Part shown: positions 4,268 to 61,519 of the stretch, piece by piece
Position numbering within the stretch: the stretch's first letter is position 1
How the letters are laid out: every line of letters starts with the position of its first letter
DNA from: Candidatus Nomurabacteria bacterium
Lineage (GTDB): Bacteria > Patescibacteriota > Minisyncoccia > Phycocordibacterales > UBA9973
Direction of reading: 5' to 3'
NCBI GenBank assembly: GCA_026395995.1
Contig: JAPLXQ010000011.1
Coordinates: forward strand, 4,210 to 68,209
DNA: 64,000 nt
Notes under the pieces: generated by a model
What the model saw: the letters and a program-made list of their open reading frames with translations, nothing else
Database searches by the model: none
Told to the model about the DNA's origin: nothing
Position numbers and translations under genes: made by a program

Positions 4268-4738
4268 ATGCGAAGAAAAGTAACAAATAGAAATATAGTA
4301 GAACCAGATTTTGTTTACAACTCTACAAAGTTGGAGAAGTTTATCAATTACATTATGTGGGACGGAAAGAAGGAGACAGCACGTAAAGTGATGTATGCTG
4401 CTTTTGATATTGTAAAAGAAAAGACTGGTAACCCAAACCCTCTAGAAGTTTTTGATCTTGCTATGAAAAATGCTGGACCACTTACAGAAGTTCGCTCAAA
4501 GCGTATCGGAGGTGCAAACTACCAAGTTCCTCGTGAAGTTTCACCAGCTCGTCGTCTTGCTCTTGCTATGCGATGGATTCGTGACGCTGCTCGTAACAAG
4601 AAGGGCCAACCAATGGCTACAAAGCTCGCTGATGAAATAATCGCAGCTTCAAAAAATGAAGGTATTGCTATCAAAAAGAAAGAAGATACTCACAAGATGG
4701 CAGAATCAAACAAAGCATTTGCTCACTTCGCTTGGTAA
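4268..4738 (+). CDS. rpsG: 30S ribosomal protein S7
   Basis: 156 aa with canonical S7 motifs, immediately downstream of rpsL. Confidence 0.95.
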   Translation: MRRKVTNRNIVEPDFVYNSTKLEKFINYIMWDGKKETARKVMYAAFDIVKEKTGNPNPLEVFDLAMKNAGPLTEVRSKRIGGANYQVPREVSPARRLALAMRWIRDAARNKKGQPMATKLADEIIAASKNEGIAIKKKEDTHKMAESNKAFAHFAW

Positions 4739-4787: not shown

Positions 4788-4822
4788 TTGACTTTTATTT
4801 ATGTGTATGCTATTCTTTAAAT
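4788..4822 (+). promoter_or_regulatory. sigma70-like promoter TTGACTTTT-N-TATGCTAT (family member)
   Basis: TTGACT at 4788-4793 and an extended -10-like element; same module as at 19024, 20177 and 21042. Confidence 0.45.
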
Positions 4823-4999
4823 GAAGTTGTTTAAAGATATTAAGGGAAACACGCCATGGTTTTCCTTTTGGCCCTCAGAAGTACAGATTTTTGAAGCTTG
4901 CTGCTTTATTTTGTATGGACGAGGGTCTTTTTTTTTTGACAAAATGGTCTGTATTTTGTACCTTTAGGTAAAGAGACAAATAGTTCTAAAACAAAACAA

Positions 5000-5503
5000 A
5001 TGAAAAATCTCATAATCGTTGTAGCTGGTGATTTTAATAATCATAGCTTTGCTCATATTATCAAAGCTGATATCAATAGCTTAGGTGAAGAATTACAAAG
5101 AAAGAGACTAAAAGATATTTTGATTTATAGTTCTACTGATGAAAATCATGTAAAAACAGCAGAAATTATAAATAAATATTTGAAAACAGAATGTTTTCAG
5201 GACGAAGAAATACTTTTTACTAAAAATACAAAGTTAGCCAAAAAAGATAAACTATCCATAGTTATGGACTATTTATTGGTGCCATCTCATAGTTCAGAAA
5301 CAGTTATTCTTGTTGTTAATGTGAATTATGCGACAGACCTGGTTTTAGCTTGTGCTGATTTATATATTCAGAAAAAGTTAGACTTTGAAAAAAATTTAAT
5401 TAAAAGTTGCGATGCTATGGTTATTGATTTAGAACATAAAACATTCTATAAAATGATTATTAGAACTTCATCATTTAACAAGTATAATCATAAAATATAT
5501 TAA
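5000..5503 (+). CDS. hypothetical protein (first gene of the island in the str operon)
   Basis: 167 aa ORF with no confident motif match. Confidence 0.4.
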   Translation: MKNLIIVVAGDFNNHSFAHIIKADINSLGEELQRKRLKDILIYSSTDENHVKTAEIINKYLKTECFQDEEILFTKNTKLAKKDKLSIVMDYLLVPSHSSETVILVVNVNYATDLVLACADLYIQKKLDFEKNLIKSCDAMVIDLEHKTFYKMIIRTSSFNKYNHKIY

Positions 5504-5664
5504 AATCGACTTAGTTTTTTTAGGAGAGTCATAACCCCTGTGTTTAGTTTACTAGGTTAATACACCTCTGGCAGATAGTCTGCTCGGAGGTTTTTTATTT
5601 GACTAATGTATCCATATTTTGTATTGTTTGGGTAAAGATAAACAGTTCCAAAAAATTAAAGAAA

Positions 5665-6135
5665 ATGAGCAATAGAACTAGGGCAAAACGAAAAGCCCGT
5701 AACAAAGAACTAAATATTCTTAAAAGGATGAAAAATCCAAAAAGCATATGCTTGGTTGAAGATACAAAAAAGTATTTAAAAGAATGGAAGAAATTATTTG
5801 AAGAAATTGATCCTGATATAGAAGTTTTTATTGATGTAAATAAACTAGCTTGGCATTCAGTTGAAAGAAAAACAGGATTAGAGCATTCTAGAATTGTAGA
5901 CATAACACATGATGTGTACATGTTAGTCATTATTCGTTTTCCATTTTTAAATGAAAAATATTTATTTTGTGGTAATGATACAGCTTATGAAAGAAGCTCT
6001 GTTATTCCATTAGAAGATCCTTATTGGTGTGACACCATTACAGAGATTGTTACTTGGCAGGAACTTTATGAAAGAGTTGTTGCTATTGTTAATAACGAAA
6101 GAGGTCAAATTCCAAAACCTGCCCCAGTAACCTAG
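5665..6135 (+). CDS. hypothetical protein
   Basis: ORF start taken at MSNRTRAK; the upstream part of the tracked ORF is the translation of a duplicated promoter module. Confidence 0.4.
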   Translation: MSNRTRAKRKARNKELNILKRMKNPKSICLVEDTKKYLKEWKKLFEEIDPDIEVFIDVNKLAWHSVERKTGLEHSRIVDITHDVYMLVIIRFPFLNEKYLFCGNDTAYERSSVIPLEDPYWCDTITEIVTWQELYERVVAIVNNERGQIPKPAPVT

Positions 6136-6191
6136 GGCAGGTTTTTTATTTGCAAAATAAAGAGAAATATTAACGAAACATAATTATCCAC

Positions 6192-6211
6192 ATCTACGCT
6201 ATAGCGTAGAT
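6192..6211. repeat. 20 bp perfect palindrome ATCTACGCTATAGCGTAGAT (copy 1)
   Basis: Seen directly; an identical copy lies at 6617-6636. The two flank the Cas2-like ORF. Confidence 0.9.
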
Positions 6212-6234
6212 GATGAATATAATATAATTAACAT

Positions 6235-6594
6235 ATGGTTATGAATAAGAAAAAGAAATACAAAGGTGTCTCTGTAAATTTATTCGGGTTACCTGATGTA
6301 GATCTTTATGAAAATAAGAAGATTGTAAAAAGAATTTATCTCGATTCTTTTGCTACTGATTTTAAAGAGAATGCACCGAAGAATTTAATTCTTATGTATG
6401 ATATTCCAGATAACATGAAAAAGCATCGAGATTGGTTTCGTCGTCAGTTAAAAAGTTTTGGTTTTATAATGGTTCAAAAGAGTGTCTGGGTTGGCCCATC
6501 ACCATTACCAAAAGACTTTTTGGAATATTTGAAAGAAATTAAAATAGGGGACAAGTTTAAAACTTTTAAATTAGCTAAAGCTTATAAATTCTAA
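6235..6594 (+). CDS. Cas2-fold (Cas2/VapD-like) protein, orphan
   Basis: 'LILMYDIPDNMKKHRDWFRRQLKSFGFIMVQKSVWVG...IKIGDKFKTFKL' aligns with the Cas2 beta1-alpha1 core (LVxYDV...KRR..V.K....G.RVQ.SVF...DSvRiY). About 48 aa N-terminal extension. No cas1 or CRISPR array in the window. Confidence 0.45.
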   Translation: MVMNKKKKYKGVSVNLFGLPDVDLYENKKIVKRIYLDSFATDFKENAPKNLILMYDIPDNMKKHRDWFRRQLKSFGFIMVQKSVWVGPSPLPKDFLEYLKEIKIGDKFKTFKLAKAYKF

Positions 6595-6616
6595 TTAATT
6601 ATTACTGATATCTTCA

Positions 6617-6636
6617 ATCTACGCTATAGCGTAGAT
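6617..6636. repeat. 20 bp perfect palindrome ATCTACGCTATAGCGTAGAT (copy 2)
   Basis: Identical to 6192-6211; sits between the Cas2-like stop and the promoter of the next ORF. Confidence 0.9.
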
Positions 6637-6712
6637 GAAATTTTGCTGTTTGACTTGTCTTCGTATATTTTGTATTGTTTGGGTAGATATAATAATTCTT
6701 AAAAAAATTAAG

Positions 6713-7240
6713 ATGAAAAAGAATTTTAAGCCTATAAACTTAACTGACAAAGGTCCAATCTTTGATTTAGATGGTCATATGCCGACAGAAGAAAATTTTG
6801 CCCATGTTCTTTTAGAACTTTTTTCTAAAAAAGTATTACCCAAAACCAGAAGAAAGATCACTGTACTTGTTTCTGGAATTAAATATCACAAACTTAGAGC
6901 TGGGCAATGGGATCGTGAACCTTTCCGTTATGAAGAAGAAAAAACTTACACTTTTGGTTTTCTTTGTAGAAAATGGAGAGATGATTCTGGTGGAAAAGAT
7001 TTTGATCCTGAGGAATTTAAAAGAGAGTCTGAGATTCATTTTAAAATATTAGAAAAACAAGGAGATAAAAAATCAGCTTGGACTCCATATGTTTTTCATA
7101 AACAATATGAAAATGCTATTAAAGCTGAAAATAAATATCAGCAAGAGCTTAAAAATGCCCGAGAACCTGAAACGATTAAAAAAATAATAAAGAAAAGAGA
7201 AAGTGAATATTCTAGTTCTCAATTATACGTTGGAGGATAG
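6713..7240 (+). CDS. hypothetical protein
   Basis: ORF start taken at MKKNFKP; preceded by a TTGACT-N17-TATTGTTTGGGTA promoter module duplicated at 5598-5640. Confidence 0.4.
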   Translation: MKKNFKPINLTDKGPIFDLDGHMPTEENFAHVLLELFSKKVLPKTRRKITVLVSGIKYHKLRAGQWDREPFRYEEEKTYTFGFLCRKWRDDSGGKDFDPEEFKRESEIHFKILEKQGDKKSAWTPYVFHKQYENAIKAENKYQQELKNAREPETIKKIIKKRESEYSSSQLYVGG

Positions 7241-7367
7241 TGAATAGGTTCTAAAATTAAACTGCATGTAAATGCAGTTTTTATTTGCAAAATTGAGGAA
7301 AATGTTTTATATTAAAGGTATTAGGGCTTTGGCCTTTTTTTATTAATTATTAACAATAAACATATAT

Positions 7368-9515
7368 ATGGAAAGAGATTATCCACTAGAGAAAGTTAGA
7401 AATATTGGAATTATTGCCCACATCGATGCGGGTAAGACTACTACGACAGAGCGTGTGCTTTATTACACAGGTGTTTCACATAAAATCGGTGAAGTTCACG
7501 ATGGAGAAACGACTACAGACTGGATGGAACAAGAGCGTGAAAGAGGTATAACTATTACTTCTGCTGCTGTTACTTGTTTCTGGACACCGACATATGCACT
7601 TACAGACAAGAGTAAGAAACACCGTTTCAATATTATCGATACTCCTGGGCACATTGACTTCACAGTGGAAGTAAAAAGATCTCTCCGTGTACTCGACGGT
7701 GCTGTCGTCGTATTTGATGGTGTTGCTGGGGTAGAACCTCAATCAGAAACAAACTGGCGTTATGCTGACGAAGCGAAAGTTCCTCGTATTTGTTTCGTGA
7801 ACAAGCTCGACCGTACAGGTGCTTCATTTGAACACTCATTCGCAACTATTTTAGATCGTTTGAATAAAAATGCTGTTCGTTACCAAATCCCTATCGGCCT
7901 AGAAGAAAAGCATGAAGGTGTTATTGATCTTTTGAAAATGAAAGCTTATTACTTTGAAGGTGAAATGGGTAATAAAGTTATTGAAAAAGATATTCCTGAA
8001 GAAATGAAAGCAGATGCACAAAAGTATCATGCAGAATTGATTGAAAAAATCGTTGAAACAGATGATGTTATGATGACAGAATATTTGGATGGAAAAATTC
8101 CAAGTGTTGAAGTTTTGAAAAAGACTTTACGTAAGGCTGTTATTAATAATGATATTTTCCCAGTTTTCGCTGGATCAGCACTGAAAAACAAGGGTGTACA
8201 ACTCGTACTCGATGCTGTCATTGATTACTTACCAGCTCCTACAGACATTCCTCCTATCGGTGGAATCAATGTTGATACAGAAGAACCAATGGTTCGTCAT
8301 GCTTCTGATGCAGAACCTTTTTCTGCTTTGGCTTTCAAAATCGCTACTGACCCATTCGTAGGACAAATCATTTTCTTCCGTGTATATTCTGGAACTCTTT
8401 CAGCTGGAAGTTATGTTTACAATCCTCGTACAAGAAACAAAGAAAGAATTGGACGTATTCTTCGTATGCATGCGAATGATCGTGAAGAAGTGAAACAAGT
8501 TTTCGCTGGAGAAATCGCAGCTGCTGTAGGACTCAAAGATACAATTACTTCAGACACACTTTGTGATGAAGCAAACCCAATTATTTTGGACCGTATCGTT
8601 TTCCCTGAACCAGTTATTTCTCTACGTATCGAACCAAAGACAAAAGCTGACCAAGAAAAAATGGGTATGGCACTCAATCGCCTTGCTCAAGAAGACCCTA
8701 CTTTCAAAGTTTCAACTGATCAAGAAACAGGAGAGACTATTATTGCCGGAATGGGAGAACTTCACCTTGAAATTATCGTTGATCGTATGAAAAGAGAATT
8801 TTCTGTGGAAGCAAATGTAGGTAAACCACAAGTAGCTTACCGTGAGACTATCACTGGTTCTTCAGAAGTAGAGGGTAAATACATTAAACAATCTGGAGGT
8901 CGTGGAAACTATGGTCACGTGAAGATCAAGATCAAGCCTATGGTTCCTATGACAAAAGAAGAAGTAGCTGATTTACCAAAAAATACAAAACGTACAGAAG
9001 GATTTGAATTCATTAACACAATTAAAGGAGGTGCTATTCCACAAGAATATATTGCTCCTTGTGAGAAGGGATTTAAAGAAGGTCTCGATCGTGGAGTACT
9101 CGCTGGTTTCAAAATGGTGAATGTATCTGTCGATCTTTGGGACGGATCTTTCCACGAAGTGGACTCAAACGAAATGGCCTTCAAAATCGCAGCCTCAATG
9201 GCCATACAAGATGCTTGTAAGATGGCTCGCCCTGTGATCCTAGAACCGATGATGAAAGTCGAAGTAGTGACTCCAGACAAGTTCATGGGAGACGTCACAG
9301 GTAACCTCTCATCAAAGCGTGGACTTATCGAAGGAATGGAAGACCGTGGTATGAATAAAGTTGTTAAAGCAATCGTTCCGCTTTCAGAAATGTTCGGATA
9401 CATGACTGGTCTACGTTCTATGACAGAAGGCCGTGCTTCATTTACTATGGAATTCTTACGTTATGATATAGTGCCACAAAACGTTGCGGATACTATTATT
9501 GCAGCGAGAAAGTAG
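7368..9515 (+). CDS. fusA: elongation factor G
   Basis: 715 aa; [15 protein letters not shown] and DTPGHIDF G-domain motifs, full EF-G architecture. Confidence 0.97.
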
Positions 9516-9523
9516 AAGTTAAT

Positions 9524-9612
9524 TCCTCCTCCCCTTAGCTAAGGGGAGGAATGAGGTGGGGTGCTGAATTTTGCACCCCCTCCCAACCTCCCCCTTGGCA
9601 AAGGGGGATGGA
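9524..9612. repeat. GC-rich triple-hairpin intergenic repeat (copy A)
   Basis: cctcctccccttagctaaggggagga / ggtggggtgctgaattttgcacccctcc / cctcccccttggcaaagggggatgg; about 90% identical to 39288-39380. Confidence 0.85.
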
Positions 9613-14555: not shown

Positions 14556-14650
14556 TGGTTAGGATTCGCCCCGCGCTTGAAAAGCGCGGGGCTTTTATGT
14601 TGTATTAACCCTCTCCTTAACAAGGAGAGGGCAGGGTGAGGTGAATCCAT

Positions 14651-18990: not shown

Positions 18991-19023
18991 TTTTTGATCC
19001 TTATTTTACAAGGCTTTTAAACT

Positions 19024-19052
19024 TGACTTTTCAAACTATATATGCTATACTT
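19024..19052 (+). promoter_or_regulatory. promoter TTGACTTTT-N-TGCTATACTT
   Basis: -35 TTGACT and extended -10 TGCTATACT; family members at 4788, 20177 and 21042. Confidence 0.55.
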
Positions 19053-20176: not shown

Positions 20177-20205
20177 TTGACTTTTATATATTGATATGCT
20201 ATACT
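20177..20205 (+). promoter_or_regulatory. promoter TTGACTTTT-N-TGCTATACTT
   Basis: Family consensus upstream of the lipoprotein gene. Confidence 0.55.
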
Positions 20206-20256
20206 TTTTACATAGTTAATTGATAAAATAAATATAAACCAAAAATCTAAAAGCAA

Positions 20257-21041: not shown

Positions 21042-21070
21042 TTGACTTTTGACTTTGGTTGTGCTATACT
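21042..21070 (+). promoter_or_regulatory. promoter TTGACTTTT-N-TGCTATACTT
   Basis: Family consensus; precedes leader copy 2. Confidence 0.55.
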
Positions 21071-21076
21071 TAGGAT

Positions 21077-25428: not shown

Positions 25429-25463
25429 CACCTCACCCCAACCCTCTCCTGGAGAGGAGAGGG
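25429..25463. repeat. GC-rich palindromic repeat (CACCTCACCCCAACCCTCTCCT-ggag-AGGAGAGGG)
   Basis: Member of a family with copies at 14608, 28717, 39975, 51873, 61068, 61484 and 22469; this copy lies inside the spc operon between rplN and rplX. Confidence 0.85.
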
Positions 25464-25479
25464 AGAAGGAAAAAATATT

Positions 25480-28716: not shown

Positions 28717-28749
28717 CCTCACCCTGACCCTCTCCTGAAGAGGAGAGGG
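28717..28749. repeat. GC-rich palindromic repeat (CCTCACCCTGACCCTCTCCT-gaag-AGGAGAGGG)
   Basis: Family member between rplF and rplR. Confidence 0.85.
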
Positions 28750-28765
28750 AAAATGAAAAAAATTT

Positions 28766-39287: not shown

Positions 39288-39380
39288 TCTTCTTCCTCCC
39301 ATTAGCTAAGGGGAGGACTGAGGTGGTGTGCTGAATTTTGCACCCCTCCCAACCTCCCCCTTGGCGAAGGGGGAGGAGAA
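39288..39380. repeat. GC-rich triple-hairpin intergenic repeat (copy B)
   Basis: About 90% identical to 9524-9612; again immediately after a stop codon. Confidence 0.85.
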
Positions 39381-39393
39381 AACAATTCTTATT

Positions 39394-39933: not shown

Positions 39934-39974
39934 TCTTAAAAATCCCCGAAAGGGGATTTTTAGATTTAAATTCT

Positions 39975-40010
39975 CCCTCTCCTTAATAAGGAGAGGGTTG
40001 GGGTGAGGTG
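39975..40010. repeat. GC-rich palindromic repeat (CCCTCTCCTTAATAAGGAGAGGGTTGGGGTGAGGTG)
   Basis: Family member after ndk. Confidence 0.85.
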
Positions 40011-42730: not shown

Positions 42731-42764
42731 ACTAAAATACATAGGTGAGACCTATGTATTTTAG
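42729..42764. repeat. 36 bp hairpin repeat (actaaaatacataggtgagacctatgtattttagtt), left flank of DGR cassette
   Basis: Near-identical copy at 45495-45533; also serves as a terminator hairpin. Confidence 0.9.
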
Positions 42765-42891
42765 TTTATAATTTAAGTTAAAAACTTGACTTTTATAGTG
42801 TATTGTGCTACACTTGTAGTTGGGAATATGTTGTCTGCCTAGCCCAAAGGGACACGAAAAGTACATTGTAATATATCAATAAATTTGAGTC

Positions 42892-43674
42892 ATGAAAGAC
42901 GAAAAAGAAAATCCGGTTTCTAAACCGACAGCGGGGATGCTCGCACAGTTAGGCTTCATTGTAGGCCAGCAAACGATTAAAGTATTATGTGAAGATGATA
43001 AAACTCTCTCGCATAGTGACGTTCAAATGATGATTTCTGACCCTGAAAACAGCAAGCAATTGCGCGAGTTATCAGAGCAGAATGCTATCAAAATCTTTGG
43101 CATTGTTTCCGATTCTTGGAAACGTGAAAAAGAAAAAAATACAAAATTTTGGAAAGAGTGTTTTGGTATTGATATACCTTGGGAGAAATTAATTATCTCA
43201 AACACAAATCCTGAATTTAAATTTGCTGAATTTATTCCTGAAAGTATCACTGCTCAAAAAGCTTTTGATATTTACGAGAAGAGATTTGGCAAGGACAAGG
43301 TATACAACTACTACGCTGAAAAAGGTATTGATAAAAATATCAAAATACAGCAGGAACGTCCAAAAGGTGATTATGTTATTTGTCATTTAGGTGGCGAAGA
43401 ACCTGATGCGAAACATCTCAATAAAAGCTACGATATATTTTCTACTGATGGAATCAAATATATGATTCCAAAAGAAGGAATAATTGCAGCACTGCGTTAT
43501 CGTTTTGAAACCGGCAAAATGTATGATGAAAAAGGATTAACATTTTTTCACGCGCTGGATGCCGATGACAAGGTGATGTGCATGAGCGGGAACGACAGTG
43601 GCAGGTTCTACATCAGCTGGGACGGCACGGGCTTCCAGAGTGCTGAGTTTGGTCCTCGTCAGGTCAGTTTCTAA
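42892..43674 (+). CDS. DGR target protein (variable C-terminus; likely CLec-fold ligand-binding domain)
   Basis: The C-terminal 35 codons are the VR: they match the downstream TR except at TR adenines. Confidence 0.75.
   Translation: MKDEKENPVSKPTAGMLAQLGFIVGQQTIKVLCEDDKTLSHSDVQMMISDPENSKQLRELSEQNAIKIFGIVSDSWKREKEKNTKFWKECFGIDIPWEKLIISNTNPEFKFAEFIPESITAQKAFDIYEKRFGKDKVYNYYAEKGIDKNIKIQQERPKGDYVICHLGGEEPDAKHLNKSYDIFSTDGIKYMIPKEGIIAALRYRFETGKMYDEKGLTFFHALDADDKVMCMSGNDSGRFYISWDGTGFQSAEFGPRQVSF
43558..43662 (+). repeat. DGR variable repeat (VR)
   Basis: 105 bp aligned to the TR at 43959-44063 with about 22 mismatches, all at positions where the TR has A. Confidence 0.85.
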
Positions 43675-43958
43675 AACTTTTCTTTTTTATTTTTTAACCC
43701 TGTATTTAATTCCCGTACTTCATTATGAAGGACGGGAATTTTTTTATATAATAATATTGGCTGTGAAAATGGTCTCGATTTAAATTGAGATAACATTTTG
43801 CCAAAAATTAGAAACTGCCTGTAAAAAATTGTTGATATAAGATCAAAAACAAAGCTTGCGACCGCAAGAGATAGAGATAGGAACCTGCCTATTATTTATT
43901 CAAAATATTTCTATGGAGATATTTGGTGATACGGAAGATTTTTTACAGTAAAGGACTG

Positions 43959-44063
43959 AATGCCGATGACAAGGTGATGAACATGAACAAGAACAACAAT
44001 GGCAAGTTCAACATCAACTGGAACAACACGGACAACCAGAATGCTAAGTTTGGTCCTCGTCAG
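43959..44063 (+). repeat. DGR template repeat (TR)
   Basis: Non-coding, A-rich copy of the target 3' end, followed by a hairpin aatccgc...gcggatt. Confidence 0.85.
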
Positions 44064-44089
44064 AAGTTTCTCGTGAATCCGCTTTCAAT

Positions 44090-44434
44090 TTATTGAGGCG
44101 GATTTTGTGTTATGGATTTCATCCAGCCGTTTGCCATCATGGAAATATTTTGTAAATTTTCTGCAAGGAGTAGATATTGTTTTTCAGGAATTATTTTGAG
44201 TTCGTATTCAGTACGGATTAAGTGTTTCAATACTTCAGTTTTCAATCTGACTTCTTTCAAATATTGTAATTTTTCTAATTTTGGACGAAAAGCTGATTCG
44301 ATACTCATCGCGAGCAAATGCAGGGAATATTCTTCTATTTTTTTATGAATACCGAGTTTATCGGATTTTGGTAATTTATTTCCTAAAATATAAATAGTTT
44401 TATATAATTTCTTTATATGACTAATGATAGGCAA
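44090..44434 (-). CDS. avd: Avd-like accessory variability determinant (four-helix-bundle / 23S rRNA IVS protein family)
   Basis: 114 aa; 'LPKSDKLGIHKKIEEYSLHL...LQNISMMANGWMKSI' parallels the IVS/Avd family consensus (FPKEE.YGLTSQLRRAA.SI...E.ML.GLIKSL). Confidence 0.7.
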   Translation of the reverse strand: MPIISHIKKLYKTIYILGNKLPKSDKLGIHKKIEEYSLHLLAMSIESAFRPKLEKLQYLKEVRLKTEVLKHLIRTEYELKIIPEKQYLLLAENLQNISMMANGWMKSITQNPPQ

Positions 44435-45513
44435 ATCAATATTTTCTCTGAAGTTGTTGCGGGGGGGGGCTACTCATAGTGACTTATTTTACCACATAAT
44501 TTCACCAGAAAATCTGCTTTTAGCATGGCGAGAATTTAAAAGAGGAAAAGCAAAGAAGATAGACATACAAGAATTTGATTTCTATTTAGAAGAAAATATT
44601 TTTAAACTTCATAATGAATTAAAAAATAAGACATATAAACCGAGTCCATATATCCCATTTTATGTTTGTGATCCAAAGCGTCGGCATATACATAAAGCTT
44701 GTGTACGAGATAGAGTAGTACATCAGGCATTGTTTAGAATTATCTCACCAATTTTTGAAAAATCTTTCATCTATGATTCTTTTTCTTGCCGGAAATACAA
44801 AGGAACGCACGCGGGAGTAGAAAGATTAGAGAACTTTTTGCGACAATCAAGTAAAAATTATTCACAAATAACTTATGCTTTGAAATGTGATATTTCTAAA
44901 TTCTTCGATTCTATTGATCACTGTATTTTAAAAAATTTATTAAGAAAGAAAATTACAGATAATGATGTATTTTGGCTTTTAGAAATTATCATAGATGGTT
45001 TTGAAAAGAAAAGTAAAATATACGCCATGGCTGATATTTCAAACTCACCACTTCTAGCGATAGCAAAGAGTGGTGAGTTAAAAAAAAGGGCTTCCTCTCG
45101 GTAATGTAACAAGTCAATTTTTTGGAAATATTTATTTGCACCAATTAGACTTTTTTATTAAAAATAACTTGAGAGTAAAATACTATATTAGATACGCTGA
45201 TGATTTTGTTATTTTATCAACTGATTATGAGATTCTTTTAAATTGTATTGATAGGATACGAAATTTCTTAAATAAAGAATTATTACTTATATTACATCCA
45301 AAGAAAATATCTATTCGTAAAAATATACAAGGAATTGATTTCTTGGGTTATGTTTTATTACCACATTATAAAGTTTTAAGGACAAATACAAAAAGAAGAA
45401 TTTTTAGAAAATTTAAAAAGAATCTTTCCAAAGAACAACAAGCATCTTATTTCGGAGTATTAAGTCATTGTAAAGGGTATAAAGTAAAACAACAACTAAA
45501 AATACATAGGTGA
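44424..45513 (+). CDS. DGR reverse transcriptase, interrupted by a frameshift in an A8 tract (45080-45087)
   Basis: RT motifs RDRVVHQAL, SFSCRKYKGTHAG, LKCDISKFFDSIDH, then (after the +1 frame change) KGLPLGNVTSQFFGNIYL (the DGR-specific LGxxxSQ) and YIRYADDFVIL (YADD). A G9 tract (44461-44469) lies 36 nt after the ATG. Confidence 0.85.
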
Positions 45514-45533
45514 GACCTATGTATTTTTAGTTG
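45495..45533. repeat. 38 bp hairpin repeat, right flank of DGR cassette
   Basis: Near-identical to 42729-42764. Confidence 0.9.
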
Positions 45534-51378: not shown

Positions 51379-51434
51379 ACAACAAAAAAATCCCCGCCAG
51401 CTGGTGGGGATTTTTTTGTTGTTTGCGAATCGAG

Positions 51435-51835
51435 TGGAGATGGGGAGAATTGAACTCCCGTGCAAAAGGGATGTGTAAAGAATTCTACATACGTAGTTTA
51501 CTTATTTGTTTAAATTAAAAAACTATTAAGTATACGAAATATTTTTTAATCGATTTCCTTTATTTTACTCGAGTGTCGGATCAGTCACTCAAACTATCCC
51601 GATAATATTATGCCTCACTCTATCTATCGGAAGTCGATAGAGGAGACACCAGACCGGCCAGTTATGTTAGGCGAGTGCTGGAACAAAAGAGAAGTCAGCC
51701 ATACCGAAGTATGGAGATACGCTTTTGTTTGAAGTCAATTTTGCAATTAACATTTAGACGAATTTTTACGAGATTACGTCAATACTCGGCACGCATCAAT
51801 AGCACATATTCCTCTTGTCTATGCCTTGCATCCCC
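51435..51835 (-). ncRNA. ssrA: tmRNA (SsrA)
   Basis: On the minus strand. 5' GGGGAUGCAAGG... acceptor arm pairs with 3' ...CAUCUCC-A. T-arm is GGGAG-UUCAAUU-CUCCC. UGCCGAG...CUCGUAAAAA PK1-like region. Candidate tag ORF ...GCU GAC UUC UCU UUU GUU CCA GCA CUC GCC UAA (ADFSFVPALA*). Adjacent to smpB. Confidence 0.7.
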
Positions 51836-51872: not shown

Positions 51873-51942
51873 ACCTAACCCTCTCCTTTATAAGGAGAGG
51901 GTGCCTCTACTGAGGCGGGTGAGGTGTGGGCGAGGGGGTCTC
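51873..51942. repeat. GC-rich palindromic repeat (CACCTAACCCTCTCCTTTATAAGGAGAGGG ... GGTGAGGTG ... GGGGG)
   Basis: Family member between smpB and ssrA. Confidence 0.8.
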
Positions 51943-55854: not shown

Positions 55855-55928
55855 CCGCCCTTAGCTCAGTTGGTTAGAGCACAGAGCTTATACCTCTGGG
55901 GTCCATGGTTCGAATCCATGAGGGCGGA
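55855..55928 (+). tRNA. tRNA-Ile (anticodon UAU)
   Basis: Cloverleaf: acceptor CCGCCCT/AGGGCGG, D-arm GCTCAGTTGGTTAGAGC, anticodon stem CAGAG/CTCTG with loop CTTATAC, T-arm CATGG-TTCGAAT-CCATG, discriminator A. Confidence 0.7.
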
Positions 55929-61067: not shown

Positions 61068-61105
61068 CCTCACCCCTGACCCCTCTCCTGGAAAGGCGAG
61101 GGGAA
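61068..61105. repeat. GC-rich palindromic repeat (CCTCACCCCTGACCCCTCTCCTGGAAAGGCGAGGGG)
   Basis: Family member. Confidence 0.8.
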
Positions 61106-61114
61106 AATACAAAA

Positions 61115-61519
61115 ATGGCACGAATTGTAAATAGTTTCAATAAAAAAGAAATTCGTCGAGATTTAAGAAAAACACAAACCTCAGAATAAATTTTGTTATG
61201 GTCAAAATTACGCAATAATCAAGTAGAATATAAATGGCGAAGACAAGTGAGTATTGGAAATTATATTGCAGATTTTTATTGCCGAGAAAAATTATTAGTA
61301 GTTGAATTAGATGGTTCACAACATTTAGAAAATAAAGAATACGATATTATTCGTGATAATTTTTTTAAATTTTTAGGAATTAAAACTTTAAGATTTTGGA
61401 ATAGTGAAGTTAATAAAGATATAAATGAAGTAATTAATAAAATTGTGTTTGAATTACATAATCGAAATGAAACCCCCTTCTCCTTTCCAGGAGAAGGGGT
61501 AGGGGATGAGGTTTTGTAG
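61115..61519 (+). pseudogene. DUF559 (Vsr-like endonuclease fold) gene interrupted by an in-frame TAA at 61187-61189
   Basis: 'MARIVNSFNKKEIRRDLRKTQTSE*ILLWSKLRNNQ...IADFYCREKLLVVELDGSQH' is colinear with the DUF559 consensus (ARELRKNQT.AEK.LW..LR....YKFRRQ..IG.YI.DF.C...KL.IELDG..H) across the stop. The 3' end runs into a GC-rich repeat (61484-61522). Confidence 0.6.

Follow-up and report, generated by a model that had tools for sequence, protein, structure and literature searches.

A small island in a Nomurabacteria-type CPR genome raises the question of why the gene of a Cas2-like protein lies between two identical perfect palindromes, and what reads these sites. The window (the whole stretch of DNA analysed, 64 kb in length) contains this gene as one of four small genes that occupy 2.6 kb between rpsG (4268-4738) and fusA (7368-9515). 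An initial annotation had described two identical 20-bp perfect palindromes around the Cas2-like gene, and both were recovered: ATCTACGCTATAGCGTAGAT is found at 6192-6211 and 6617-6636 against a chance expectation of 0, and a search of the 64 kb that allowed three mismatches gave no further match, and 100 shuffles gave none. The features of the locus, together with a third palindrome of the same family elsewhere in the window, are the following:

6114-6145, plus strand: terminator-like hairpin with T-run, ending the preceding cargo gene
6192-6211, no strand: upstream palindrome, putative operator and left boundary of the module, preceded by ATAATTATCCAC
6223-6228, plus strand: TATAAT -10 hexamer, read from the sequence, with an overlapping alternative at 6218-6223
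6235-6594, plus strand: Cas2-fold/PaaX_M-domain gene (119 aa; alternative start at 6241, giving 117 aa)
6617-6636, no strand: downstream palindrome, proposed right boundary site, followed by the tail GAAATTTTGCTG
6650-6678, plus strand: promoter TTGACT-N17-TATTGT of the next cargo gene (6713-7240), given as context and outside the module
45018-45037, no strand: third family palindrome ATATACGCCATGGCTGATAT, the reverse complement of the common variant ATATCAGCCATGGCGTATAT

The identity of the two flanking copies extends over 22 nt (6192-6213 and 6617-6638), i.e., the 20-mer plus GA. The annotation had already extended the identity beyond the 20-mer; the '(c)a' that it had placed on the left fits the downstream copy only (tcaATCT, versus cacATCT upstream). 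The upstream copy forms part of a 22-bp perfect dyad (6191-6212, C...G) and does lie over the -35 region as had been proposed, ending 23 nt 5' of the ATG at 6235. Its centre is located 21.5 nt 5' of the -10 hexamer at 6223, at about position -34, and the distance of only 6 nt between this hexamer and the ATG implies a leaderless or near-leaderless mRNA. The placement of the second copy after the stop codon and before the next promoter was confirmed, as it begins 22 nt past the stop (gene end 6594) and ends 13 nt before the TTGACT at 6650. The hairpin and T-run at 6114-6145 would insulate the module from upstream transcription. The window also contains an unrelated family of GC-rich palindromes.

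The same arrangement recurs in approximately 100 homologous modules, which share the order palindrome, about 12 nt, TATAAT, 6-9 nt, ATG, gene, palindrome, and which carry an exact or near-exact palindrome on both flanks despite protein identities of 53-70%. The same gene between the same two palindromes also occupies the rpsG-fusA slot of the close relative L001, whose protein is 87% identical, and all three cargo ORFs there differ from those of the window. At 80 further loci the family palindrome was found on both flanks of nearly every gene, and the exact 20-mer of the window is present at 17 other distinct loci. The core consensus is AT-N-TACGC-YATR-GCGTA-N-AT, in which variants are symmetric: positions 3/18 are C-G, A-T, or T-A, the centre is either TATA or CATG, and both copies of a locus carry the matching variant. 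Palindromic symmetry is retained even in more divergent sites, for example AATTCAGCCATGGCTGAATT and ATCTCCACCATGGTGGAGAT. In 62 of 81 loci, 22-23 nt separate the centre of the upstream palindrome from the -10 hexamer, with no conservation of the sequence between them, and the ATG follows the hexamer after 6-9 nt. This fixed layout places the dyad at about -34, where it replaces the -35 element of a leaderless-looking promoter; a dyad over core promoter elements at conserved spacing is a feature of dimeric-repressor operators. The downstream copy lies 0-27 nt past the stop codon, or overlaps it, in most homologous loci, and in one clade the palindrome itself codes for the C-terminal ...ISAMA and the stop. 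Several MAGs contain at least two family copies on different contigs, and same-genome paralogues (55-72% identical) are mostly associated with different palindrome types, which suggests orthogonal specificities.

The best Pfam match of the flanked gene product is PF20803, the central Cas2-like domain of PaaX (52.9 bits, E = 3.9e-14), with further matches to PF09827 (CRISPR_Cas2; 30.9 bits against a cutoff of 23.8, E = 3.1e-07) and TIGR01573 (32 bits). A first AF2 model based on a 36-sequence alignment was too poor (pLDDT 55) and was replaced by a monomer model of moderate confidence from a 120-sequence alignment (pLDDT 73.7). This model begins with a beta-hairpin at residues 7-14 (motif YKGxSVNxFGLP), continues with a flexible linker that contains the basic residues K32 and R33, and ends in a beta-alpha-beta-beta-alpha-beta core; the prediction is poor for the linker with residues 30-33, and the pLDDT of residues 23-31 is below 50. 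Comparison with the PDB by Foldseek retrieved type II-A Cas2 as best match (5zyf, 8pk1, 5xvn; probability 0.99), with VapD and E. coli PaaX (8a39) as the next matches, and a profile search of PDB sequences agreed weakly with this result. Residues Y55-D56 are invariant, the Cas2 'YD' aspartate D56 being kept in 120 sequences, and the invariant and near-invariant columns contain no histidine and thus no HUH motif. The family, with 1,744 matches in 90%-identity clusters and 324 relatives in GTDB species representatives, is confined to Nomurabacteria/Paceibacteria-type CPR bacteria. Its nearest relatives outside the family are about 165 aa long; they share the YKG hairpin and Cas2-like core with it and differ by a winged-helix insert of the PaaX type at the place of the short linker of the Cas2-like protein. 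These wHTH-plus-Cas2-like relatives point to a DNA-binding ancestry; in the few examples available, no flanking palindromes were found around them.

A perfect dyad of this kind would conventionally be assigned to a dimeric regulator or a recombinase, as the initial annotation had done with a helix-turn-helix (HTH) protein of the island in mind. Domain searches of the island proteins (Pfam, NCBIfam, PADLOC, PHROG) detected no HTH in the Cas2-like protein or in the three other ORFs, the latter having zero matches in any of these databases. The variation among loci directed attention to the Cas2-like protein instead. Where the centre of the upstream palindrome is of the TATA type, residue 59, three positions after the invariant D56, is Asp or Glu in 32 of 32 loci; where it is CATG, the residue is His, Ser, Gln, Asn, Tyr, or Phe in 44 of 45, so that the rule is obeyed by 76 of 77 loci. 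It also holds for 21 of 22 hold-out modules from metagenome contigs, and hence for 97 of 99 modules overall. The protein of the window has D59. The outer positions follow a similar pattern: Arg32 occurs in all 33 loci with A at site position 3 (otherwise this residue is mostly Lys), and Arg33 in 26 of 29 loci with G at position 18. The inferred pairings (Arg-G, His-G, Asp/Glu-A) are chemically ordinary for direct base readout.

Protein and sites are physically linked, and the covariation could thus be inflated by co-inheritance; the same could result from a poorly resolved tree of so short a protein. On a tree built without the columns concerned, residue 59 and the centre each changed approximately 16-17 times, and phylogenetically independent contrasts agreed in 10 of 10 cases for residue 59 and the centre and in 8 of 10 for the outer positions (residues 32/33). 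Furthermore, the mutual information with the centre was 0.91 bit for residue 59 and 0.53 bit for the next-best protein column, a residue-specific signal that makes simple block co-inheritance unlikely. It appears highly probable from these patterns that the Cas2-like protein reads the palindrome. They suggest a simple recognition code, in which residue 59 would correspond to the site centre and residues 32/33 to position 3/18. In Cas2-type dimers the D56 loops lie near the two-fold axis, so a dyad centred there provides a natural binding geometry. The protein, lacking an HTH, would form a symmetric dimer that spans the 20-22-bp dyad, with residue 59, by the Asp56 loop near the dimer axis, reading the central tetranucleotide and the basic linker (K/R32, R33) reading the outer position 3/18.

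Alternatively, an HTH transcription factor from another part of the genome might use the palindrome as its operator, as perfect dyads are typical of HTH-dimer operators and the rest of the genome lies outside the window. This is extremely improbable: besides the lack of an HTH in the island, the covariation is with the linked Cas2-like protein, and the flanking pattern follows the gene into at least seven genomic slots. The proposal of a dimeric operator or recombinase site was borne out with respect to the dyad and its overlap with the -35 region, but the covariation indicates the Cas2-like protein itself as the probable reader, and the site is not private to the cassette.

This last point emerged from a degenerate-pattern scan of metagenome contigs, which yielded at least 120 loci; a single further match came from viral contigs, giving 121 listed and no association with phages. 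Among these 121 matches listed, 27 have a Cas2-like ORF within 150 nt and 94 do not. The solitary copies that could be placed among the matches listed comprise 63 intergenic ones and 18 inside ORFs, and the intergenic ones show an enrichment at 3' ends (in the matches listed, 21 lie between convergent, 35 between tandem, and 7 between divergent genes), often adjoining a canonical terminator. Tandem pairs of palindromes 56-93 nt apart consist of two different types. In the 4 kb on either side of 80 genome modules (580 kb), there are two truly solitary copies, the other outlying copies bounding cargo ORFs.

Such dispersal is what would be expected if the palindromes belonged to a generic REP-like or terminator hairpin family that flanks the gene by chance and has no relation to its product. 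The abundance of copies away from any Cas2-like gene among the listed metagenome matches and the GC-rich palindromes in the window could be taken in its favour. Against it stand the residue-specific covariation, the presence of the palindrome at fixed positions on both sides of nearly every family gene, and the scarcity of solitary copies around the modules, so that this explanation is regarded as highly improbable. The initial annotation had noted that dozens of copies across the genome without positional logic would mark a generic REP-like hairpin; the dispersal goes partly in this direction, although the flanking pair has a very strong positional logic.

Some copies are situated in frame within housekeeping genes and encode the peptide (H/N/Y)(L/I)R(H/Y)(G/S)V(D/N)V. 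Their hosts include genes for ComF-like proteins (seven contigs), TatD, DHFR, RNase HI, TsaD, RsmI, and a DGR reverse transcriptase (RT). That these in-gene copies are simple insertions was considered and rejected: among 120 RNase HI orthologues, about 40% have the palindrome-coded loop and the remainder have a loop that is only 1 aa shorter, which favours in-situ conversion or decay over simple insertion. The third palindrome of the window (45018-45037) is located within an extra segment of about 72 nt in a DGR RT gene, whose Pfam RVT_1 match is split into two frames (positions 9-105 and 117-204). An interpretation of this gene as disrupted by a MITE had to be softened, because removal of one A from the A8 run at 45080-45087 restores a single continuous RT with an in-frame extra loop, and the loop concerned also contains a palindrome-coded peptide in another RT (at locus L142).

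A sizeable part of the sites extends past the core in a way for which a simple operator model has no explanation. At least three additional complementary base pairs past the 20-bp core were observed at 47% of solitary and 40% of gene-linked sites (null 2.1%), and at least five at 34% and 31%, respectively (null 0.2%). These extensions are diverse in sequence, and the stems are perfectly Watson-Crick paired and end abruptly, without enrichment of G:T (G:U) pairs, which favours a palindrome at the DNA level over an RNA stem; a cruciform, a single-stranded DNA hairpin, or a palindrome-generating process are the candidate forms. Since the extended stems reach beyond the 20-22 bp that a dimer would read, they suggest that the palindrome adopts a hairpin or a cruciform. 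About 20% of the sites contain a recurrent asymmetric half-site, with TCAGC in place of TACGC, that breaks two stem pairs. This half-site and the solitary copies (at 3' ends, between convergent genes, and in frame) are beyond what a simple autoregulator model explains.

The position of the solitary copies at 3' ends and that of the downstream copy in the 3' UTR of its own gene are also compatible with a role in RNA, the palindromes forming hairpins for 3'-end definition, stability, or processing, and a VapD/Cas2-type RNA-binding protein or RNase reading loop and stem. VapD is among the fold matches, VapD and some Cas2 proteins are RNases, and covariation with the centre would equally accommodate loop recognition. 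The upstream copy, however, lies 5' of the conserved -10 hexamer and is thus absent from the transcript of its own gene, and its fixed spacing to this hexamer is a DNA-level constraint. Neither the stems, with their abrupt ends and lack of G:U enrichment, nor the TCAGC half-site with its two broken pairs conform to an RNA structure, and the presence/absence breakpoints described below are DNA events. There is also no consistent U-tract, and Rfam searches at the gathering threshold retrieved only tmRNA and tRNA and no family matching the palindromes. An RNA-level function is therefore judged improbable. The more specific candidate function as an intrinsic (Rho-independent) terminator was rejected: a terminator scan called neither copy (the downstream one being followed by GAAATTTTGCTG) and no canonical terminator after the flanked gene, and no consistent T-run follows the palindrome across loci. 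Taken together, the RNA-hairpin, generic REP, and unlinked HTH readings fit poorly with the fixed promoter spacing and the covariation.

The remaining question is whether the module can be gained and lost as a unit. The gene was found in at least seven recurrent housekeeping slots, namely S12-S7/EF-G, LemA-HtpX/GatC-GatA, FtsW-FolD/PAP2-like-SecDF, RNase III-SMC, dUTPase-ArgRS, Pth/DnaE, and near L32. Unclustered variable ORFs often adjoin it, some of which are bracketed by an extra palindrome. The protein clade tracks the palindrome type more closely than the slot, and the S7-EF-G slot alone contains three different protein clades with their palindrome types. Metagenome contigs with the same slots, a single palindrome, and no gene were also found (SMC-[P]-c33, S7-[P]-...EF-G, and c82-[P]-c84, with P denoting the palindrome). 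In one case a filled and an empty site could be compared at the DNA level: L059 (filled) and L199 (empty) match at 73 of 80 nt in the left flank and 51 of 60 nt in the right flank (control 28 of 60), and L199 has one palindrome in place of the two of L059 and lacks the 419-bp unit, the breakpoints falling exactly at the palindrome. This pair shows a deletion or insertion with breakpoints in the palindrome, and it could be a plain deletion between 20-bp repeats. A systematic DNA-level search for further filled/empty pairs yielded none besides L059/L199, the other comparisons remaining at the AT-rich background of about 60%. No target-site duplications were seen. A candidate integration signature, complementarity between the left flank of the upstream copy and the right flank of the downstream copy, was discarded, as it mostly reflected a shared 4-5-bp extension and was clean only in the pair L010/L176.

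These observations give some weight to a reading that overlaps the one preferred here, in which the module is a mobile element whose Cas2-like protein acts as nuclease or recombinase on a cruciform or single-stranded DNA hairpin formed by the palindrome, with the solitary and in-gene palindromes as targets, footprints, or non-autonomous copies, much as in REP/RAYT systems or the hairpin ends of IS200/IS605. A gene flanked by its own palindromes, the precise filled/empty pair, the empty slots with one palindrome, and the turnover of clades in the S7-EF-G slot would all be expected of such an element, as would the frequent extended perfect stems of variable sequence, the in-frame copies in ComF-like, TatD, DHFR, RNase HI, TsaD, RsmI, and RT genes, the cargo ORFs bracketed by extra palindromes, and the invariance of the metal-binding Asp of Cas2. 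Nevertheless, we know of no transposase or recombinase chemistry for the Cas2 fold; the same-genome paralogues are old (55-72% identical) and not recent copies; the slots are conserved across many species, and the orientation of the gene is never inverted. Moreover, the palindrome-containing RNase HI sites differ by 1 aa from palindrome-free orthologues, more like in-situ change or conversion, only a single empty site is available at the DNA level, and a test of whether integration had taken place into an already existing extended palindrome gave no generally positive result. Mobility of this kind is considered a tentative possibility, and it is rather doubtful that the Cas2-fold protein is the catalytic engine of unrecognised palindrome-bounded mobile modules in CPR bacteria, cutting or recombining at the dyad centre. 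If it were, modules, cargo cassettes, and solo palindromes would spread into hotspots and even into gene loops, and the family would represent a free-living relative of Cas2 DNA handling that bears on how Cas2 was recruited into CRISPR adaptation.

The preferred explanation, held with moderate confidence, is a composite one: the palindromes would be the operator and boundary sites of the Cas2-like protein itself, within an autoregulated module that is prone to gain and loss. It combines the directly established architecture, the symmetric variation of the sites, their covariation with the protein, the Cas2 fold, the one presence/absence pair, and the solitary copies. Because the upstream site replaces the -35 element of the gene's own promoter, its occupancy should repress transcription, which we infer to result in negative autoregulation. 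The downstream site may mark the 3' boundary, either as a roadblock or insulator or by pairing with the upstream site. Since the two sites are identical, recombination at the palindrome can remove the unit of 419-425 bp and probably also insert it, any catalyst of this process being putative. The earlier suggestion of a tightly regulated or excisable cassette is supported to this extent, by the conserved -35 position at about 60 diverse loci and by the one filled/empty pair that breaks at the palindrome.

The proposed role, that of a small Cas2-fold family in which each member is paired with its own 20-22-bp palindrome, would change the view of stand-alone 'Cas2' genes in CRISPR-poor CPR genomes, which are routinely and without further explanation annotated as CRISPR endonucleases or PaaX regulators, and it would account for a dispersed palindrome family in Paceibacteria genomes. 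If the recognition code is true, the Cas2 fold can serve as a sequence-specific DNA reader, a function that to our knowledge has not been described before. The modules also offer a tractable system for studying how minimal genomes regulate or shuffle variable islands, and for Cas2-like functions before or outside CRISPR.

No description of palindromes associated with Cas2-like or PaaX proteins, or of solo Cas2 in Patescibacteria, was found in searchable full text, but the module shares traits with several known systems. With CRISPR Cas2 it has in common the ferredoxin-like fold, the 'YD' aspartate of beta1, and type II-A Cas2 as top structural matches, and the duplex spanned by the Cas2 dimer when Cas1-Cas2 holds a prespacer is similar in length to the dyad of about 20-22 bp. 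In contrast to Cas2, the module protein has an extra N-terminal region of 50 aa and seems to be sequence-specific, whereas Cas2 touches the DNA backbone only. The window contains no interspaced repeat (CRISPR) array, neither cas1 nor any other cas gene is nearby, and the neighbourhoods are of housekeeping type: rpsG, fusA, and unannotated small ORFs adjoin the gene in the window, and the recurrent neighbours at the 80 other loci, as read from their sequences, are housekeeping genes. VapD-type toxin-antitoxin systems differ from the module in that no conserved adjacent partner (antitoxin) gene exists across 80 loci, the small ORFs beside the gene being unclustered and variable. The PaaX repressor, composed of a wHTH, a Cas2-like middle, and a C-terminal domain (8a39), resembles the module protein in PF20803 as best Pfam match, in a palindromic DNA target over a promoter, and through the wHTH-plus-Cas2-like relatives of about 165 aa. 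The module protein lacks, however, both the wHTH and the PaaX_C domain, has no link to phenylacetate genes, carries its specificity-linked residues in a core loop (residue 59) and a short basic linker, and is encoded by a gene flanked by its own sites.

The module follows the logic of autoregulated IS elements and integron cassettes in that one site overlies the promoter of the element, the unit and in some cases neighbouring cargo ORFs lie between identical sites, and a single site is left when the unit is absent. The module sites are nevertheless perfect palindromes without orientation, unlike imperfect attC sites with their R and L boxes or terminal inverted repeats, and the recurrent neighbours, judged by their sequences, include no recognisable IntI, other tyrosine recombinase, or known transposase. 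The Rickettsia palindromic elements (RPE) are 100-150 bp long and occur in frame in housekeeping genes; likewise, the palindromes described here are found in frame in conserved genes of this kind and add a short peptide loop to the product or replace one. They differ from RPE by their core of 20-30 bp, by the linked cognate protein, and by the replacement of the RNase HI loop at near-equal length. A further parallel is provided by REPtrons, i.e., REP elements with their RAYT (REP-associated tyrosine transposase; Nunvar, 2010; Bertels and Rainey, 2011; Ton-Hoang, 2012). In both systems a small gene lies between two copies of the palindrome that is the presumed target of its product, other copies are dispersed, extragenic, and mostly located at 3' ends, and paralogues pair with different repeat variants. 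Instead of an HUH or catalytic-Tyr motif, the module protein has the Cas2/PaaX_M fold; its palindromes are perfect, share a 20-bp core between species, and have an apparently low copy number (three in the 64-kb window); and the upstream copy forms an integral part of the promoter at a fixed distance, in modules of which several divergent paralogues exist per genome.

The rpsG-fusA island, a group of four small genes comprising the Cas2-like gene (6235-6594) and three cargo genes, is a conserved frame within which the cargo is swapped. Each cargo gene is preceded by a lineage-specific promoter block (TTGACT/A-N17-TATTGT-TTGGGTA...), and two of the three end in a terminator with TTTTTATTTGCAAAAT. 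In the closest relative (L001, 4790-6760) these blocks are kept, yet all three cargo ORFs are different proteins. Searches of Pfam, NCBIfam, PADLOC and PHROGs gave no family match for the three cargo genes of the window.

Cargo genes and blocks of the island (window 4928-7306)
5000-5503, 5665-6135, 6713-7240: cargo genes
4928-4960, 5591-5662, 6642-6713; 6143-6171, 7278-7306: island blocks

The palindrome family to which the two dyads flanking the Cas2-like gene belong also contributes to coding sequence. In one clade of Cas2-like proteins the downstream copy overlaps the gene end: it codes for the protein's C-terminus, ...ISAMA*, and the stop codon falls within the palindrome (ATA TCA GCC ATG GCG TAA). 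Of the 80 loci, some two dozen have such 3' ends (for example L011, L013, L023, L025, L030, L033, L039, L050, L054, L058, L066, L067, L071 and L077). Some conserved housekeeping genes carry the palindrome in frame, where it encodes (H/N/Y)(L/I)R(H/Y)(G/S)V(D/N)V and is in some cases present as two tandem copies. Among RNase HI orthologues, one loop exists in three versions, which are perfect, degenerate and palindrome-free.

Genes with an in-frame family palindrome
ComF-like: L086, L096, L105, L126, L156, L172, L183
TatD: L097, L185
DHFR: L122, L174
RNase HI: L103
TsaD: L173
RsmI: L202
RT: L142

Tandem pairs, spaced 56-93 nt, are frequent among the solitary palindromes, and the two members of a pair always differ in specificity type, i.e., in the palindrome variant (L091, 1017/1089; L125, 1546/1609; L128, 91/134/223; L149, 8005/8098; L201, 10508/10564).

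A third family palindrome of the window (45018-45037) lies inside the RT gene of a diversity-generating retroelement, which is bracketed by two copies of the same 29-nt hairpin (AAAATACATAGGTGAGACCTATGTATTTT), one at 42734 and one at 45499. The A8 run at 45080-45087 contains a frameshift that splits the RT.

Retroelement and RNA genes of the window
42734-45527: diversity-generating retroelement
43555-43662 and 43956-44063: VR/TR-like 108-nt repeats, 82% identical
44090-44434, minus strand: bAvd gene
44424-45513: RT gene
51432-51835, minus strand: tmRNA gene (Rfam, 129 bits)
55855-55928, plus strand: tRNA gene

A strong promoter consensus, TTGACTTTT-N-TATGCTATACTT, recurs ahead of several window genes (4788-4817, 19023-19052, 20177-20206, 21042-21071, 42786-42815). 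Separate from the Cas2-like palindrome, a family of palindromic repeats rich in GC (CCCTCTCC...GGAGAGGG) is dispersed across the AT-rich window (9523-9606, 14604-14636, 25442-25475, 28728-28761, 39290-39385, 39970-40002, 51874-51906, 61081-61114, 61476-61509); these repeats appear to form a true REP-like or terminator family with no relation to that palindrome.
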